This document shows positions 49-55,434 of a stretch of 55,925 nt of DNA, one piece after another. How positions within the stretch are numbered: the first letter of the stretch is position 1; every line of letters begins with the position of its first letter. Position numbers and translations under genes: made by a program. The notes below the pieces were generated by a model. The model had not been told where the DNA came from, did no database searches, and worked only from the letters and a program-made list of their open reading frames with translations. This DNA comes from an uncultured Bacilli bacterium (GTDB taxonomy: Bacteria > Bacillota_I > Bacilli_A > RFN20 > CAG-826): assembly GCA_944336335.1 (NCBI GenBank), contig CALVLC010000024.1, forward strand, positions 1-55,925, given 5' to 3'.

Positions 49-124
49 TGGTGGACTCTACAGGACTCGAACCTGTAACCGATCGGTTATGGGCCGATAG
101 CTCTAACCATTGCGCTAAGAGTCC
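49..124 (-). tRNA. tRNA with CAT anticodon, most likely tRNA-Ile2 (lysidine type)
   Basis: Cloverleaf GGACTCT/AGAGTCC, anticodon arm ATCGG-CC CAT AA-CCGAT, T arm ACAGG-TTCGAGT-CCTGT, ACCA end. Resembles Bacilli Ile2 rather than Met. Confidence 0.85.
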
Positions 125-145
125 ATATCACTTACTGTTTTAATT

Positions 146-222
146 TGGTAGCAGCGAGTGGACTCGAACCACCGACGCACCGGGTATGAGCCGATTGCTC
201 TAACCAACTGAGCTACGCTGCC
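146..222 (-). tRNA. tRNA-Met(CAT), elongator
   Basis: GGCAGCG/CGCTGCT acceptor, loop CT CAT AC, ACCA end; lacks initiator features (no C1 mismatch, no GGG/CCC anticodon stem). Confidence 0.92.
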
Positions 223-230
223 ATAAAAAA

Positions 231-304
231 TGGTGGATCCTAGGAGAATCGAACTCCTGACTTAAGCTTGCAAAGCTAACGTTATCCCATTTAACTAAGG
301 ACCC
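231..304 (-). tRNA. tRNA-Ala(TGC)
   Basis: GGGTCCT/AGGATCC acceptor with G3:U70, loop TT TGC AA, ACCA end. Confidence 0.95.
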
Positions 305-9960: not shown

Positions 9961-10034
9961 TGGAGCAGGTGACGGGAATCGAACCCGCGTAATCAGCTTG
10001 GAAGGCTGATGCTCTACCATTAAACTACACCTGC
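9961..10034 (-). tRNA. tRNA-Gly(TCC)
   Basis: GCAGGTG/CACCTGC acceptor, loop CT TCC AA, U73, CCA; followed by a hairpin plus T-run near 9920-9946. Confidence 0.96.
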
Positions 10035-12885: not shown

Positions 12886-15800
12886 TTAAACTTGATAAAA
12901 TACATTTTCCCCTTCAACTTTAATAAAATTCTTTACACTAGCGAAATCAATTGATAAAAGAATAATCTCTTTCATTGTATCGCCTACTTTATTAAAACCA
13001 AAAGCAGAAACAACATATTTTATCAATTCATCTTTAGTTAATGAAAGTTTATTTTTCATGATATCTCGAATTGCAACGATAATTTCTTCTTTTGGAATAT
13101 CGATAAATTCACGGTATTTAGAACCAACACGATAATAACCAACTCGTTCCTTGTCCTCTTCTTTATCCCAATAAAATTTCATATCGTTAGTATAATTAGA
13201 AGGTTTGTTATAAAGGAGTTCAGAAAATACTGCTTTAGTAGTTTTGGTATTTTTGCTTATTGAAAATTGATTTAAAACTTTTTTAACTAAAAGCCTTTCG
13301 CTGATTGGGCCTTCATTTCTTATAAAAAAGTTAATTACACTTTTGGTGCGTGTTTCTTTTTCTTCGAAAAATAATTCACTATCAGTTTCTCTTGATGGAT
13401 AACTTGATGAAACGTAATCAATTGAATGATTAAAATCATCTTGATTGTCTTCTTTTTCAAAAGTTATTTTTCTCTTTGGACTTTTTTTAATTGTTTGTGA
13501 ATCATCTGGATTATTAATTGCTTCAATAATCTTATCAATTACTAAATTTGGCGAATCAAAATAATCCAAAGACCAAATTCGAATAATTCGCCGCCCAAGT
13601 TGATTTAATACATCGGTTTGAACAACGTTACGATCTTTACTTGTTTTTGAATTGATATAACTTCTTGAGTCACATAGAACGCCAAGAATATATTTATTTT
13701 CATCCGTAGGATCAACGATTCCAATATCTACTCTAAATTCACTTGTGCCAATATTAGTATTAACTATATATCCACGTTTTTCTAAATCTTTTGCAATATA
13801 TTTTTCAATTCCTTCTTTATATTCTTTTTGTTCGCCATTTTTAATAACAATAAAATTACGACCCTTATAAGCATAATCAAGGAATTCTTTTAAACCACGA
13901 GCACCCTTCCCTTGAGCACGACTTGTATCGATTTGACTACCTAAAATTGAAGAAAAAACTATCATTTCTTCTCTTGCTCTTGAAACAGCAACATTTAAAC
14001 GCTTTTCTCCGCCAACATTTGAAAGCGGTCCAAAATTAAAGGATAATTTGCCCTCTTTATTACGTGCATAACAGATTGAGAAAATTATTACATCTCTTTC
14101 ATCGCCTTGAACACTTTCAAGATTTTTAACAAAAAGTTCTTCTCTACCATTATATGCTCTATCTTCTAAATCAGGATTTCTTCTAAAAGCATCTTGCAAT
14201 AAATCAAGAATTAAAGTTTGTTGAGAAATAGAAAAAGTTACAACGCCGATACTCTTTTTTGAAAGTTCGTCGTCTTTTAATCTTCTTAAAATTTCTTCAA
14301 CTATAGCTTTAGCTTCGTTTTTATTTTTTCTGTCTTCATAAATTCCATCTTCAATAAATCTAAATGAAATAGAACTATTTATTGATTTAGGCGAAGGGAA
14401 AGTTAAAAGTTTATTATCATAATATTCGACATTAGAGAAAGCAATTAAACTTTCATCTTTACTACGATAATGCCATGTTAAATATTTTTTAGGCATCGAA
14501 ATATTTAAACAATCTGATAAAACACTTTCGCCATCTTCGATAAAGAAATCATCTTCATCGCTAGTGTCGGCTTCAAAAAATCTTGTAGGTGGAAGTTGTT
14601 TTTCATCTCCAACAATAATTGCACTTTTTCCTCTCGCAATCGCTCCAACTGCATCGCTTGTTGTAATTTGACTGGCTTCGTCAAAAATAACAATGTCAAA
14701 TTTCTTATGAGATGGATCAAGATATTGAGCAACACTCAATGGGGACATAAGAAAACATGGGCAGATAGTGTGCAAAATATTTGGAGTTGAATCAAAAAGA
14801 TTTCTAAGACTTATTCCACGTCCATTACTTGAAATAGCTTTCTTTAAAATGACAAATTCTTTAGCCTTCTGACTAGTTTCATCATCTTTTGAGAAAAAAG
14901 TACTCGTTCCTTTTGATAAACGATAGGCAACTTCGCGAATTGTAAGTTCATTATATTTATCAATTAATTTACGATATTCTTCGATTTTTTCATTTTGACT
15001 ACGACCACTAAACATATTAAGTTCTTTGTCGCTTTCAACATCAATGAGAGCAAGATTATAAGAGACATTTTTCTTATAAACATTGATTAAGTCTTCATTT
15101 TTTATAACACCATCTAAATTAAGGCTAATTAAATTGCCAACATTTAATTTTGAAACTGCTTTTTCTTCGTTTCTAAAAATGATGTAATCTTTTAATCTCT
15201 CATTACGATTTATAACTCGATCGATGAGTTCGACATTTTCAGTTAGACTGAATCTATCGAATAAACTTAGAACATCTGTTTTGTATTCTTCTAAAAGATT
15301 ATTTTGAATGTCGATAAGATCTTCATAACAGTTAGCAACTTCTTCATATTTTTTATCAGCACTTACGATAAGTTTTAAAGTGCTTGGTCTTTCCATATTT
15401 ATGAAGCTATCAAGATATTTTGAAAATTCTTGAGTAAGATTTACGTTGCTTAAAATAATGTTAAGATCTGAATCAAAACCGTTATAGTCGTCTTCAAAAG
15501 CAAGTTTCAAATCTCTTTCGTTATCTTTCAAATTGGTTAAGACATCATTAACTAAAGATATATTCTTTAAATGATCTGAAATGTTCTTTTTACTGATAGA
15601 TTTTGGATTTAAAGCATAAAGTTTTAAATCGTTAATAACATTCTTAATTATTCTATTTTTCTTAAAATAACCGAGATTTTGCGCTTGTTTTAGCTTAAAT
15701 TGTGGGTCTTTGTAGTTATAATTAAAGATGTTCTCACTGAAATTATTTTTAAGATATAGATAAGAATCTTTATTCTCAATCATCGATTGAAGAATCGAAA

Positions 15801-18585
15801 CTAAATCAAAAATATATCCTTCAGACTTATTTAAAAGAGAGAAATAAATGTTATCTTTATTGGTGTTAAAATATTTTAAAGAATTAATAAATTCATTAAA
15901 GTTTTTGGAATTAAATGCAAGTTCAGTTTCACAACCTCTATAAAGTTCATCGCATATTTCTTTAAACTCTAATAAGCTTAATTTATATTTCTTTAAAGCA
16001 TTTACAAAATTATTTCTAATTTCAATAGAATATTCATCTAAATTTATAAATGAAAATAAATCGATATATTCTTTACCAATCTCACGCTTATAATTTAGAT
16101 AAGTATTTAAACTATCAATCGTTTGTTGATATGAATTTTTATTGATTTTTGCATAATCAATTCCTTCAACATCAATGTCTTTATAATCATCCTTGAATTC
16201 TTCATACCCGATAATATTTTCATATAAATCAAATCCATTTTTAAATGGCTTATGAAGTTTTTTGATAATTTCATTCAACTCATTTCTTTTAGCTAGTAAA
16301 TCGTTTGCGCATTTTTCATATTCAAATGGTTTCTTAAGTTTTCCAGTTTCTAAAATATTATTAATTTGCTGCAAAACATCTGACTTTTGCGCCTTATTTG
16401 AGTGAAGTTCAATGCAAAACATACCAAGGCCAACTTCATCAAGTCTTCTTTTAACAACCTCAAGAGCAGCCATTTTTTGAGCGACGAAAAGAACGGTTTT
16501 TCCATTATATAAACTATTTATAATCATATTTGTAATGGTTTGACTCTTTCCGGTTCCTGGAGGCCCATTCAAAACAAAACTTAACCCTCTTGACGCATCT
16601 AAAATAGCTTCAGTTTGGCTACTATCAGCGCTTAACGGAATAGCAAATTTATTTGGTAAAAGTAACGAATCTAAATCACTAACTTTTGTTGGTTCAACTT
16701 CATTTTTAAAGACAAAAGAAGGATCAACCAAAGCGTGAACAATATCGTTTTTGATTAATTCTTTTTTATGATTTCTTAAGTCATTCCACATGATAAAACG
16801 TGTGAAACTAAAAATTCCAATAAAAGAAGTTTCGGACAGAATAAAACCATCGATGCCTGTAATTTTGCTTCTTAAAGTATTGAAATATTTTTTAAGGTCA
16901 TAAGTATCGGTCTCATCATCATAAGGGAGCTTTAGTAAACTTGAACAATCAATATCAAAATTAATCTTTAAATATTCAAAAAGAGTTTGGTTGATAACAA
17001 TTTCTTCTTCTCTTAAAGACAAAATATAAGTTCTACCTTCTTTTCCGCGAGAAATATTGACAGGTAAAAGAATGATTGGAGCGTTTTTCATTTTACCCTT
17101 ATCTTTATACACTAAAGTTCCAATAGTTAAGAAAAGTGTGTTACTTCCGCTTTCTTCGATGCTACTTTGAGCATCACGCATTAACTTTTTAACAACAGTT
17201 ACTAATTTCTTTTCGCCAACTATAAGTCTGATTCTGTCATTTGCAAGATCTCCAGCAAACATTTCTTCTTGGTCAGCGCCACTACAAACATAAATTTTAT
17301 CACTCATAGTTAATGAAACTATGTTTAAATAAGAGTGTAAACTTACACTATTGTGGATAAGTTCATCAAATAATTGATAAATATCAGTGGCAAAAATTTG
17401 GAAATGTTGAGTATTTGGTGTAAAACTAACAAGTTTATTTCTTCCGTTTAAATCAAGAAGTTTCTTTTCCCAAACATCAAAACGATCTTTAACATGTTCG
17501 CTTTCTAAAAATCCAGAATCATCAAGATCAAAAATTTCTTCTTTGATTTCAAATGGAGTCGTATCAATAACGTATTTACCTTCACTATTTATTTTTAAAG
17601 GTAAAGGCTTAATATTGGCGTTTCTGGCACTTTTGATATCAACTGCCGAAAATACACTTGTTTTTTTATAAATATTATTTTTCCCACTTGTATAAATTTC
17701 TTTAAAAGTGGTTTCGATTGGATTTGTTATTAAAGTTGTTTCAAGGAGTATTAAATTTTGTGAATTAACTTGATTTATAACATAAGCTTTATCTTCGATT
17801 ACAACATTTGGATAAACAAATTGTTGGAGCCAACATCCTAAATAAGCATGTCCATCTATTAAAATAATTAATGGATTTAACCCAATCGCTTCTAAGCAAC
17901 CAGCCATAAGTAAAGTTGTATCAAGACAAGTAGAAAGTTTTGAATTAATAATTTCAAGTGGCAAACGAATTTTTTGACCATCTTTTTCAAAACTTGTTTT
18001 TGGAACACAATATGAAATTCTAAGTGCTTTCAAAGCATAATAAACACTTGAAATTTGATTTAAAACATCTTCTTTTTTACCACTTTGATAACCGATATAT
18101 TGAAGAGAATTATTCGTCAATTCAGCTAAATATTCACTTCCAGAGTGTAAAATATCTTTGATAACATTGTCATTTGGTAAAACAAAACTAGCAATATGTT
18201 GAACACCACAAGTGTTGCCATCCCATTCATCATATGTTAAAACTTCGCTATCGAAAGTTTCTTCAGCTAAAATTTCATCATTTTTTTTAATTGTAACAGC
18301 AATGCTAACTTTAAAAGATTCGTTTAAAGAATAAAAATATTCAAAATCAATTGGAGCTGGGATTTTATCTTCTTTGATTTTTTGATTCTTACCAATATAA
18401 CTAATTCCAAAAGTTATTGGTGTAATAAAAGAAGGGACAAAATTTATAAGACAAGTCAAATCTTTGTATTCGATCTCACTATTATTTTCTATAAAAACGT
18501 TTTCAATGACTTTTTTTCCAGAATTTATTATAGAATAGTTGATTTTTTTCAAAAATTCTAATTCAATTTTAAGGTTATTATTCAT
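12886..18585 (-). CDS. DUF4011 / DNA2-NAM7-like SF1 helicase / Vsr-like nuclease / DUF3320-type multidomain protein
   Basis: WEKKLLDLNGRNKL (DUF4011), GPPGTGKSQT, FDEASQ, GDEKQLPP, WHYRS, VQGDERD, RLNVAVSRAR, FRVDIGI..LCD..IIRIWS; N-terminal TCLD..GHAY segment. Confidence 0.92.
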   Translation of the reverse strand: MNNNLKIELEFLKKINYSIINSGKKVIENVFIENNSEIEYKDLTCLINFVPSFITPITFGISYIGKNQKIKEDKIPAPIDFEYFYSLNESFKVSIAVTIKKNDEILAEETFDSEVLTYDEWDGNTCGVQHIASFVLPNDNVIKDILHSGSEYLAELTNNSLQYIGYQSGKKEDVLNQISSVYYALKALRISYCVPKTSFEKDGQKIRLPLEIINSKLSTCLDTTLLMAGCLEAIGLNPLIILIDGHAYLGCWLQQFVYPNVVIEDKAYVINQVNSQNLILLETTLITNPIETTFKEIYTSGKNNIYKKTSVFSAVDIKSARNANIKPLPLKINSEGKYVIDTTPFEIKEEIFDLDDSGFLESEHVKDRFDVWEKKLLDLNGRNKLVSFTPNTQHFQIFATDIYQLFDELIHNSVSLHSYLNIVSLTMSDKIYVCSGADQEEMFAGDLANDRIRLIVGEKKLVTVVKKLMRDAQSSIEESGSNTLFLTIGTLVYKDKGKMKNAPIILLPVNISRGKEGRTYILSLREEEIVINQTLFEYLKINFDIDCSSLLKLPYDDETDTYDLKKYFNTLRSKITGIDGFILSETSFIGIFSFTRFIMWNDLRNHKKELIKNDIVHALVDPSFVFKNEVEPTKVSDLDSLLLPNKFAIPLSADSSQTEAILDASRGLSFVLNGPPGTGKSQTITNMIINSLYNGKTVLFVAQKMAALEVVKRRLDEVGLGMFCIELHSNKAQKSDVLQQINNILETGKLKKPFEYEKCANDLLAKRNELNEIIKKLHKPFKNGFDLYENIIGYEEFKDDYKDIDVEGIDYAKINKNSYQQTIDSLNTYLNYKREIGKEYIDLFSFINLDEYSIEIRNNFVNALKKYKLSLLEFKEICDELYRGCETELAFNSKNFNEFINSLKYFNTNKDNIYFSLLNKSEGYIFDLVSILQSMIENKDSYLYLKNNFSENIFNYNYKDPQFKLKQAQNLGYFKKNRIIKNVINDLKLYALNPKSISKKNISDHLKNISLVNDVLTNLKDNERDLKLAFEDDYNGFDSDLNIILSNVNLTQEFSKYLDSFINMERPSTLKLIVSADKKYEEVANCYEDLIDIQNNLLEEYKTDVLSLFDRFSLTENVELIDRVINRNERLKDYIIFRNEEKAVSKLNVGNLISLNLDGVIKNEDLINVYKKNVSYNLALIDVESDKELNMFSGRSQNEKIEEYRKLIDKYNELTIREVAYRLSKGTSTFFSKDDETSQKAKEFVILKKAISSNGRGISLRNLFDSTPNILHTICPCFLMSPLSVAQYLDPSHKKFDIVIFDEASQITTSDAVGAIARGKSAIIVGDEKQLPPTRFFEADTSDEDDFFIEDGESVLSDCLNISMPKKYLTWHYRSKDESLIAFSNVEYYDNKLLTFPSPKSINSSISFRFIEDGIYEDRKNKNEAKAIVEEILRRLKDDELSKKSIGVVTFSISQQTLILDLLQDAFRRNPDLEDRAYNGREELFVKNLESVQGDERDVIIFSICYARNKEGKLSFNFGPLSNVGGEKRLNVAVSRAREEMIVFSSILGSQIDTSRAQGKGARGLKEFLDYAYKGRNFIVIKNGEQKEYKEGIEKYIAKDLEKRGYIVNTNIGTSEFRVDIGIVDPTDENKYILGVLCDSRSYINSKTSKDRNVVQTDVLNQLGRRIIRIWSLDYFDSPNLVIDKIIEAINNPDDSQTIKKSPKRKITFEKEDNQDDFNHSIDYVSSSYPSRETDSELFFEEKETRTKSVINFFIRNEGPISERLLVKKVLNQFSISKNTKTTKAVFSELLYNKPSNYTNDMKFYWDKEEDKERVGYYRVGSKYREFIDIPKEEIIVAIRDIMKNKLSLTKDELIKYVVSAFGFNKVGDTMKEIILLSIDFASVKNFIKVEGENVFYQV

Positions 18586-24896: not shown

Positions 24897-24970
24897 GCAA
24901 TAGTAGTTAAATGGTATAACGGATCCATGGTAAGGATCTATTCGTAGTTCGATTCTGCGCTATTGCACCA
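24897..24970 (+). tRNA. tRNA-Thr(GGT)
   Basis: GCAATAG/CTATTGC acceptor, GATCC-AT GGT AA-GGATC anticodon arm, CGTAG-TTCGATT-CTGCG T arm, ACCA. Confidence 0.95.
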
Positions 24971-54297: not shown

Positions 54298-55314
54298 TTA
54301 TTTATTCTCTTTTTTAGATTTCAATAAATCTTCATAAATAACTTTAATTTTACTTCCAATATTTTTCAGATCTCTTTCTTTAGCAACTTCAAATCCTTCA
54401 CTTACTATCGAAGAATTGTCTGTTTCTAAAATTTTTGTAATTAGAGAAGAAAATTCTTCATTATTTTTGCCCATGTAACAATTTTTATTATTAACTAGCC
54501 AGCCATCATAAACTCCAATATTTCTAACTAAAAGTGGAGTTTTACTAGCTAAAGCCTCTAATACGACAATACCTTCGGTTTCTTCATAAGATGGGAAGAA
54601 AAATAATGAAGCGTATTGATATGCACCCTTAATAATATTACCTGAAATATAGCCTGGCATAATTACATTGCTAGGTCTTTTTCTAATACATTTAAGAATG
54701 TATGGTTGAACAAGAATTCTATTGAGGTGTCCAAACCGAATAAATTTTAATTCAGGGTGTTTTCTTGCCACTTCAAAAAAATCTTGAATTCCCTTTCTTC
54801 TAAATGGTAAGCCTACACCAATAACAACTTTTTCGCCATCTTTTATATTGAAATACTTTTTAAATTCATTTACTGCTTCTGGATTTTCTTTATATTCTTC
54901 AATATCTATACCATTAGATAGATCAACAACATTTTTATTATATCCATAGGATAGAATTAATTTTTTTGAATAAGGAGTTGGAGTAACGATTAGATCAGCT
55001 ATGGAATACATTTTTTTAAGCTGACGATAAACATAAATCGCCATAACCTTCCATAATCTAAAAGAATTTCTAAAATCTTCCCTTGTAGAATGGCCATGAA
55101 CAATTAAAGGAATTCCTTTTCTTTTACACTTTTTTGCAATAGAGAAAGAACTTAAATAATAAGTATTAATATGCGCGATATCAAAATCATCTTTAGGATT
55201 TAATGTATATTCTATACCATTTTCAGAACAAGCTTTCATCTGATGTCTTAAAGCTCTTCCAATACCACTGTATCTGATTGATTTTTCACTTCCAAAATAT
55301 AACAAAACTTTCAT
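54298..55314 (-). CDS. GT4 glycosyltransferase (CpoA/glycolipid synthase-like)
   Basis: SGIGRA, HGHST.EDFRNSF, RKGI.DF, FPSYEETEGIVVLEALA. Start at Met14 of the ORF. Confidence 0.92.
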   Translation of the reverse strand: MKVLLYFGSEKSIRYSGIGRALRHQMKACSENGIEYTLNPKDDFDIAHINTYYLSSFSIAKKCKRKGIPLIVHGHSTREDFRNSFRLWKVMAIYVYRQLKKMYSIADLIVTPTPYSKKLILSYGYNKNVVDLSNGIDIEEYKENPEAVNEFKKYFNIKDGEKVVIGVGLPFRRKGIQDFFEVARKHPELKFIRFGHLNRILVQPYILKCIRKRPSNVIMPGYISGNIIKGAYQYASLFFFPSYEETEGIVVLEALASKTPLLVRNIGVYDGWLVNNKNCYMGKNNEEFSSLITKILETDNSSIVSEGFEVAKERDLKNIGSKIKVIYEDLLKSKKENK

Positions 55315-55434
55315 GTCATTAATTATATCATACGAACTCCATATTTGTTTCAATTAGTATGTTTTATCAAAACTTTTTACATAACGAAAATCAAGATCTA
55401 TAAAGATGTCGTACGCATTTTCTTTAAAAAGTAT

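Follow-up and report, generated by a model that had tools for sequence, protein, structure and literature searches.

To our knowledge, reassignments of sense codons are very rare in bacteria, and the known cases involving CGG have all been put forward without experimental confirmation. Here we describe an uncultured Bacilli bacterium of the gut in which CGG is very probably read as tryptophan (Trp, W) and not as arginine (Arg, R), starting from one CGG codon in a helicase-nuclease gene on a 55,925-nucleotide (nt) stretch of its genome (contig CALVLC010000024.1, positions 1–55,925; hereafter the window). The closest described system is the CGG-to-Trp change reported in uncultivated Bacilli of the genus UBA4855 (o__RFN20, f__CAG-826, g__UBA4855; Shulgina and Eddy 2021, eLife, PMC8629427). 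In the accessible part of that paper and its supplementary file 6, the change covers five assemblies from four species, with a guanine-plus-cytosine (GC) content of 0.27–0.30 and 9–28 supporting Pfam columns. These organisms have a transfer RNA (tRNA) with anticodon CCG, hereafter tRNA(CCG), that combines G73 and A/G1:U72 with the lack of A20; they have no tRNA(UCG), and their rare CGG codons occupy positions at which relatives have TGG. A tRNA with G73 and without A20 was taken there as evidence for the new meaning and A/G1:U72 as supportive, A20 being named as an identity element of arginyl-tRNA synthetase (ArgRS). The published CGG reassignments are, in the same accessible text, likewise without experimental confirmation.

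The genome studied here (G000, a bin of 169 contigs that is 80% complete) resembles the UBA4855 assemblies in the codon affected and its new meaning, in a tRNA(CCG) with G73, A/G1:U72 and no A20, in the lack of a detected tRNA(UCG), in its low GC and in rare CGG codons at TGG positions. Indirect evidence would place it in UBA4855 or the present-day GTDB equivalent of that genus, since tRNA(CCG) of this type was found in only one of the 70 sampled genera of the order and relatives of the focal gene carry titles like those of the paper's assemblies (‘uncultured Mollicutes bacterium’, ‘uncultured Bacillales bacterium’, ‘uncultured Bacilli bacterium’). The change is thus rare and, in our assessment, real, but of an already described kind, matching that of the RFN20 Bacilli. 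Compared with the four species of the published text, at least 31 of the 60 species in the genus were found here to have tRNA(CCG). It occurs in two sequence types, alongside eight congeners that carry tRNA-Arg(UCG). These three observations go beyond the accessible text of PMC8629427, although its Figure 4-figure supplement 2 may show part of them.

Other described systems share fewer of these features, as far as the accessible portions of their sources go. Anaerococcus (Clostridia) has the same codon change, the same tRNA logic and a low GC, and Finegoldia likewise has a Trp-like tRNA(CCG), but Anaerococcus belongs to another class and its CGG is too rare for supporting conserved positions (PMC8629427), whereas dozens of supporting positions were found here. 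In Absconditabacteria an Arg CGN codon likewise became Trp at low GC, but CGA and CGG both change and UGA encodes glycine (PMC8629427); CGA stays Arg in G000. The CGG-to-Gln change of Peptacetobacter (PMC8629427) and the CGG-to-Ala change of the genus RGIG3102 involve the same codon and a tRNA(CCG) without A20, but a different amino acid. Two archaeal assemblies with CGG-to-Trp also have a tRNA(CCG) without A20; they differ in domain, in their balanced GC and in having CGG as the dominant Trp codon. A 2026 preprint (bioRxiv 10.64898/2026.04.02.715157) finds the known CGG cases again and reports CGG-to-Ala and the archaeal CGG-to-Trp as further ones.

Two CGG codons in the window

The codon from which the analysis started (site 1) and its context are as follows.

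13591–13593, minus strand: CGG codon 1665, at the invariant Trp of an LGW motif, as judged from sequence, frame and homologue columns
12886–18585, minus strand: helicase-nuclease gene of 1899 amino acids (aa) hosting site 1, with Pfam matches to DUF4011, AAA_11/AAA_12 (superfamily 1 helicase), REase_MTES_1575 and DUF3320
13516–13806, minus strand: REase_MTES_1575 nuclease domain, residues 1594–1690, containing the CGG codon (Pfam E 1.2e-21, profile positions 2–96 of 96)

The DUF3320 match was sub-threshold (24.7 bits against a cut-off of 25). The plus strand reads CCG at 13591–13593, which places CGG on the minus strand as codon 1665 of the open reading frame (ORF) at 12886–18585, and the reverse complement of 13570–13599 is CTT GGG CGG CGA ATT ATT CGA ATT TGG TCT.

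The column occupied by this codon was almost invariant among homologues. With the domain as query, 19 proteins were retrieved, one of them identical; the other 18 (66–91% identity) all had W in this column, within the motif LGW[RK]xIR[IV]W[ST]LDYF. A wider search returned 6554 proteins with E up to 0.001 in a library of 1.84 billion proteins, and in the 149 best cluster representatives besides the close relative P0003 (27–54% identity), W occurred in 148 and R in one. The representative with R at the otherwise invariant position could come from another organism with a reassigned code or reflect a real substitution. At the nucleotide level, the codon was TGG in all eight orthologous genomic loci found in public metagenome-assembled genomes. 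An earlier model-made reading of the letters alone (hereafter the sequence-only reading) had given the same ten codons around 13591–13593, which match exactly in frame and codon number, and had stated the consensus LGWxxxRIWS, which the close homologues, the distant representatives and the orthologous loci establish as real.

The base itself was reproduced in an independent assembly: in run X4, a Logan contig of 1842 nt with one difference spans 13301–13900 and has G at 13593. Since X4 and the likely source sample come from one study, the independence of this confirmation is weak. Contigs of diverged strains co-occurring in X4 and X5 had A at 13593, which gives a TGG codon. Similar exchanges were seen elsewhere in this gene family. 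The helicase-nuclease orthologue of a relative, L076 (CASFZJ010000001.1), has two CGG codons, at alignment columns 120 and 1810, and all other aligned rows have TGG in these columns (6/6 and 8/8). Protein P0008 has R at the second W of the RIWSL motif, probably a mistranslation of CGG under translation table 11. Both observations fit a silent exchange of TGG and CGG in several lineages. The codon at 13591–13593 almost certainly stands for the invariant Trp in the nuclease motif, with no Arg substitution involved.

The window contains 251 CGG trinucleotides on its two strands, yet only two in-frame CGG codons among the 16,839 codons of its ORFs of at least 100 aa. The second one (site 2) is as follows.

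54736–54738, minus strand: CGG codon 206, in the motif F-I-[CGG]-F-G, the one further in-frame CGG that ORFs of at least 100 aa contain in the window
54298–55353, minus strand: glycosyltransferase family 4 / group 1 gene of 351 aa hosting site 2 (Glycos_transf_1 8.4e-18, Glyco_transf_4 5.3e-13)

The column of site 2 was W in all 120 homologues (56–94% identity). The sequence-only reading, which had scanned most ORFs by eye and reported two in-frame CGG codons, both at Trp-consensus sites, was therefore right on the number and on both sites.

CGG codons across the genome

Counted over all 169 contigs, the bin contains 1051 CGG codons, of which 896 lie on 63 mostly short contigs with a GC of 0.335–0.71 (e.g. 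C65, C78, C90 and C140) that are foreign contaminants. CGG usage of the whole assembly was therefore misleading, and a code inference made on it would be drawn towards CGG as Arg. The analysis was limited to a core set of 106 contigs with a GC below 0.335 (most 0.27–0.32), which total 1.71 Mb and yield 506,599 codons in 1379 ORFs of at least 100 aa. The ORF caller starts at the first ATG, GTG or TTG past a stop, so that some ORFs include a 5′ leader. Counts of the relevant codons in the core set were as follows.

CGG: 155 (0.31 per 1000), in 136 ORFs
TGG: 3224
CGA: 1052
CGC: 575
CGT: 2730
AGA: 10,531
AGG: 942

CGG would thus account for 155 of 3379 putative Trp codons in the core. Highly conserved CGG sites in this set include codon 202 of C6_7201_9795, codon 585 of C49_29034_31664 and codon 204 of C13_24095_25987.

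All 1379 core ORFs were compared by tblastn with two genomes, each almost fully fetched. G028 belongs to another family of the same order (1.269 of 1.280 Mb used; 614 ORFs matched at E up to 1e-10) and has tRNA-Arg with anticodons ACG, CCT, TCG and TCT and none with CCG. G002 (0.879 Mb, GC 0.249; 621 ORFs matched) is a congener of G000; it has tRNA-Arg(TCG) and no tRNA(CCG). Neither genome yielded an aligned homologue covering site 1 of the helicase-nuclease in these tblastn searches. The G002 match of the site 2 glycosyltransferase, in which the codon faces S, was a 28%-identical paralogue and was set aside in favour of the 120 true homologues.

Against G028, the 37 aligned CGG sites faced W most often (W 9, Y 4, K 4, R 3, I 3, H 2, S 2, F 2, others 1–2), whereas the five other Arg codons faced R in 37–55% of cases and TGG faced W in 53%. 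Restricting the comparison to sites in good context (at least five identities in the 12 flanking columns) left 18 CGG sites, at which W occurred nine times, Y, F and S twice each, G, K, A and L once each and R not at all. The same preference was stronger within the genus. The 45 CGG sites aligned to G002 faced W 19 times, in every case as TGG, followed by F 4, N 4, Y 3, R 3, S 2, L 2 and eight other residues once each; of the 25 sites in good context, 16 faced W, and TGG overall faced W at 757 of 1210 sites. The three CGG codons facing R stand at codon positions 2, 2 and 6 in their ORFs. An ATG follows shortly downstream, and GGGG or GGGGGAG stretches resembling ribosome-binding sites adjoin them, so they are probably non-coding leader sequence. 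Other Arg codons faced W at fewer than 0.2% of sites (6/7682 against G002 and 12/7555 against G028).

These counts were evaluated with a leave-one-codon-out likelihood, our own method and not Codetta, which takes the probability of an outgroup residue for a given query amino acid from the remaining codons in that comparison. W was the best meaning of CGG in both comparisons. Against G028, Y followed at −21.6 nats and R at −41.3 nats; against G002, the corresponding values were −71.5 and −115.1 nats. The method recovered the standard meaning of every codon of the multi-codon amino acids but CGG, with CGA and AGG inferred as Arg; ATG and TGG are outside its reach. A reciprocal control was made with the 21 aligned CGG codons of G002 itself, which faced AAT, AAA, GAA, CAG, GAT, AGA, CGA, CGT and others in G000, and TGG in no case. 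As the CGG codons of G002 never faced TGG, the CGG-Trp signal belongs to G000 and is no artefact of the method.

The tRNA(CCG) of the genome and its genus

ARAGORN identified 46 tRNA genes on the core contigs, those labelled Arg having the anticodons ACG (twice), CCT and CCG. The last of these was found outside the window.

G000 contig C37, 6658–6731, complement: tRNA(CCG) of 74 nt

Its acceptor stem (AGGGGCT/AGCCCCT) starts with A1:U72 and is followed by the discriminator G73, and its D loop of 7 nt (AATGGTA) has U20 and hence no arginine determinant A20. The tRNA-Trp(CCA) of G000 has the same length and D loop, whereas tRNA-Arg(ACG) and tRNA-Arg(CCT) are 77 nt long with a ...GGATA... D loop, i.e. 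with A20. On the core contigs, ARAGORN found neither tRNA-Arg(UCG) nor a canonical tRNA-Arg(CCG); tRNA-Arg(UCU) was also not found in this set, although AGA is the main Arg codon.

We further determined the occurrence of this tRNA across 60 species genomes of the genus in our collection, using pattern searches followed by ARAGORN. A strict first pattern matched 19 of the 60 genomes, and looser patterns together with ARAGORN raised the number to 31 confirmed genomes, including G000, in each of which tRNA(CCG) is 74–75 nt long with G73 and U20. Two further genomes, G069 and G073, matched by pattern only. The first-position pair was A/G1:U72 in 27 of the 31 confirmed tRNAs and G1:C72 in the other four, the latter being the pair of the genus's own tRNA-Trp. 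Two sequence types were apparent, one with a TAAGTTAATGGTA D arm, to which the tRNA of G000 belongs, and one with a TAGTTTAATGGTA D arm, whose members are up to 77% identical to tRNA-Trp(CCA).

Rankings of tRNA(CCG) against other tRNAs that included the long Ser and Leu tRNAs were uninformative, so the comparison was limited to tRNAs shorter than 80 nt. The tRNA-Trp(CCA) of G002 was then the top match for 10 of 24 tRNA(CCG) genes (up to 77% identity), and an Arg tRNA was the top match for none. Descent from tRNA-Trp is thereby weakly supported. In an alignment of the 24 genes the cloverleaf was kept and 16 of 21 pairs showed compensatory changes, while the CCG anticodon, the D-loop GGTA (U20) and G73/GCCA were invariant. 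This conservation argues for a functional tRNA(CCG) gene under selection.

A clear tRNA-Arg(UCG) was found in eight of the 60 genomes, none of which has tRNA(CCG), so that the two tRNAs are mutually exclusive in the genus. An Arg-type tRNA(CCG) pattern matched none of the 60 genomes. The UCG pattern was likewise not found in G051 and G053, which are 96–97% complete and whose tRNA(CCG) differs by 1–2 bases. UCG pattern matches in G057 and G019 were not tRNA-like in sequence and were left uncounted. A BLAST survey with the tRNA-Arg(UCG) of G002 mostly matched tRNA-Arg(ACG), which is 96% identical, and anticodon-specific patterns were therefore used instead. Loci from genomes that matched neither pattern at that stage contained eight CGG among 16,018 codons, three of which face TGG in G000 or G002 (G052, G058 and G069) and one of which faces CGT in G028.

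Beyond the genus, an order-wide sample of 401 genomes (70 genera, 8 families) was searched. The Trp-type tRNA(CCG) pattern occurred in 25 of them, all from this genus (24 of the 40 sampled besides G000), and was not found among the 360 searched genomes from the 69 other genera.

No duplicated or specialised tryptophanyl-tRNA synthetase (TrpRS) was found across the 60 genus genomes, and there was no link to tRNA(CCG). Each of the 57 genomes with a TIGR00233 match has one TrpRS locus, the gene of G009 being split over two contigs; in G000 it lies on contig C30 (15556–16530). With a single locus per genome, one enzyme would have to serve both anticodons. Seven genomes (G020, G021, G023, G052, G070, G071 and G074) had a much weaker TIGR00233 match (E about 1e-70 compared with about 1e-108) over a longer matched span. 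Their TrpRS is a divergent or replaced lineage within the genus and is uncorrelated with the presence of tRNA(CCG).

The window has tRNA genes of its own, with no bearing on the reading of CGG. Two Met(CAT) and one Ala(TGC) gene lie at its 5′ end (49–304, minus strand), and Gly(TCC) and Thr(GGT) lie at 9961–10034 (minus strand) and 24897–24970 (plus strand). Outside the window, two contigs of the bin, C113 (19,591 bp) and C159 (20,640 bp), look TAG-recoded. Reading TAG as sense raised their cover by ORFs of at least 100 aa from 0.69 to 0.93 and from 0.67 to 0.99, respectively, and extended the longest ORF of C159 from 559 aa under the standard code to 4717 aa. On C113, a tRNA with anticodon CTA (labelled ‘Pyl’ by ARAGORN) adjoins tRNA-Gln(CTG). 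These contigs probably represent a phage, or an element of another kind, that has a recoded stop codon and was binned together with the bacterium. On the core contigs ORFs were long under table 11, and no stop codon appears to be reassigned.

Alternative readings, proposed mechanism and consequences

Codon-column likelihood, the features of tRNA(CCG) and the confirmed base all support the proposal of the sequence-only reading that this genome reads CGG as Trp. Genome-wide, its CGG codons align best to W and not to R columns; CGA and AGG, which it had kept as Arg, were recovered as such; the X4 assembly returned the same base at site 1, within the weak independence noted above; and the sole CCG-anticodon tRNA of G000 has G73, A1:U72 and U20 where two Arg tRNAs have A20, with no canonical tRNA-Arg(CCG) pattern among the 60 genus genomes. 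The features relied on by PMC8629427 are likewise all present in G000, namely Trp columns, a tRNA(CCG) with G73 and without A20, A1:U72, no Arg tRNA found for CGG, and a low GC with rare CGG. Judged from genome sequence, a Trp meaning of CGG is very probable.

Several observations weigh against this reading. Counting all aligned sites, CGG faced W in only 42% (G002) and 24% (G028) of cases, compared with 63% and 53% for TGG, which suggests that some CGG codons occupy variable positions or fall within non-coding extensions of ORFs, or that decoding is not clean. A few poorly aligned CGG codons face basic residues, for example codon 230 of C6_11624 (R in G028, K in G002) and codons 691 of C21_6205 and 12 of C8_7253 (both R in G028). 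G000 is incomplete and tRNA-Arg(UCU) also escaped detection, so the missing tRNA-Arg(UCG) is weak evidence in this genome. Its tRNA(CCG) is 65% identical to its own tRNA-Trp and nearly as similar (64%) to a tRNA-Gly. In the anticodon, C35 and G36 are arginine determinants, whereas A36 is a determinant for TrpRS, and some mischarging or inefficient charging of tRNA(CCG) is conceivable.

The alternative that survives best builds on these points. Decoding of CGG could be ambiguous: tRNA(CCG) might receive Trp in some cases and Arg in others, or CGG might be read slowly, with the resulting mixture tolerated. The ArgRS determinants retained in the anticodon, the lower W share, the few R- or K-facing sites and the single TrpRS without a specialised paralogue would all agree with this, and the accessible text of PMC8629427 places such ambiguity beyond exclusion by computation. 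We nevertheless consider it improbable, given where CGG occurs. In conserved enzymes it stands at strictly invariant Trp positions where Arg would be damaging; tblastn examples are IEI-W-G/N-IVFSQ in an 864-aa ORF, NKI-W-N in an 876-aa ORF and TIE-W-LE in a 630-aa ORF, which by eye resemble alanyl-tRNA synthetase, valyl-tRNA synthetase and an ABC-F protein, respectively (candidate labels from inspection alone). A20, the strongest ArgRS determinant outside the anticodon, is absent from all 31 confirmed tRNA(CCG) genes. R was found at 0 of 18 good-context sites against G028, and its single case among the 25 against G002 is a probable leader site.

CGG could instead be unassigned or in the course of being purged, with tRNA(CCG) a non-functional relic and the remaining codons deleterious leftovers. 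The rarity of CGG in the core (0.31 per 1000) would suit this, and there is a precedent in Mycoplasma capricolum (cited in the accessible text of PMC8629427). A relic is, however, hard to reconcile with a perfect cloverleaf in 24 genes that have an invariant anticodon and show compensatory changes in 16 of 21 pairs; the codons lie in essential conserved genes and are enriched specifically at Trp columns, not at random ones, and in relatives CGG arises independently at columns that are otherwise all TGG. This alternative is very improbable. That CGG still means Arg, the two window sites being TGG-to-CGG missense mutations, sequencing errors or RNA-edited sites, would need one transition per site and draws on the small number of sites in the window (n = 2), but it is the least probable reading and effectively already refuted by the genome-wide disfavour of R (41 and 115 nats), the 19 independent CGG sites facing TGG in G002 when other Arg codons face W at less than 0.2%, the reproduced base, the conserved Trp-type tRNA(CCG), and the finding of no Arg-type tRNA reading CGG in G000 and no match of the Arg-type tRNA(CCG) pattern in the 60 genus genomes.

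If CGG is read as Trp, the mechanism would centre on the dedicated tRNA(CCG), whose Trp identity set (G73, A1:U72) and lack of A20 would allow charging with Trp by the sole TrpRS and which would read CGG by Watson-Crick pairing. The tRNA-Arg(UCG) that reads CGG by wobble would have been lost. CGU, CGC and CGA would stay Arg, read by a tRNA-Arg(ACG) that presumably carries inosine at position 34, and AGA and AGG would be decoded by Arg tRNAs of their own. A plausible order of events starts with AT-driven depletion of CGG, followed by loss of tRNA-Arg(UCG), capture of the codon by a Trp tRNA and the regaining of CGG through T-to-C changes at TGG, which would be silent under the new code.

For annotation, the change means that table 11 writes Arg for Trp at about 150 positions of this genome (155 CGG, a few of them in probable 5′ leaders), many of them invariant catalytic or structural Trp residues, including that of the nuclease motif in the helicase-nuclease. 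Such mistranslation degrades homology searches, structure predictions and the expression of these genes in E. coli, and public protein databases already contain mistranslated entries (P0002 and, with its R in RIWSL, probably P0008). For the biology of the group, the genus contains close species with and without the change, and is a good system in which to study how the meaning of a codon changes and how a single TrpRS copes with the CCA and CCG anticodons. In eight species tRNA-Arg(UCG) is kept and CGG occurs at non-Trp positions, and at least 31 carry the Trp-type tRNA(CCG). The genus might be a living codon-capture series in which capture, or replacement of the capturing tRNA, happened more than once; we offer this as an unlikely extension. 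If the two types of tRNA(CCG) do represent independent duplications of tRNA-Trp, the change from CGG to Trp would be a recurrent and predictable outcome of tRNA-Arg(UCG) loss in AT-rich genomes and not a single frozen accident.

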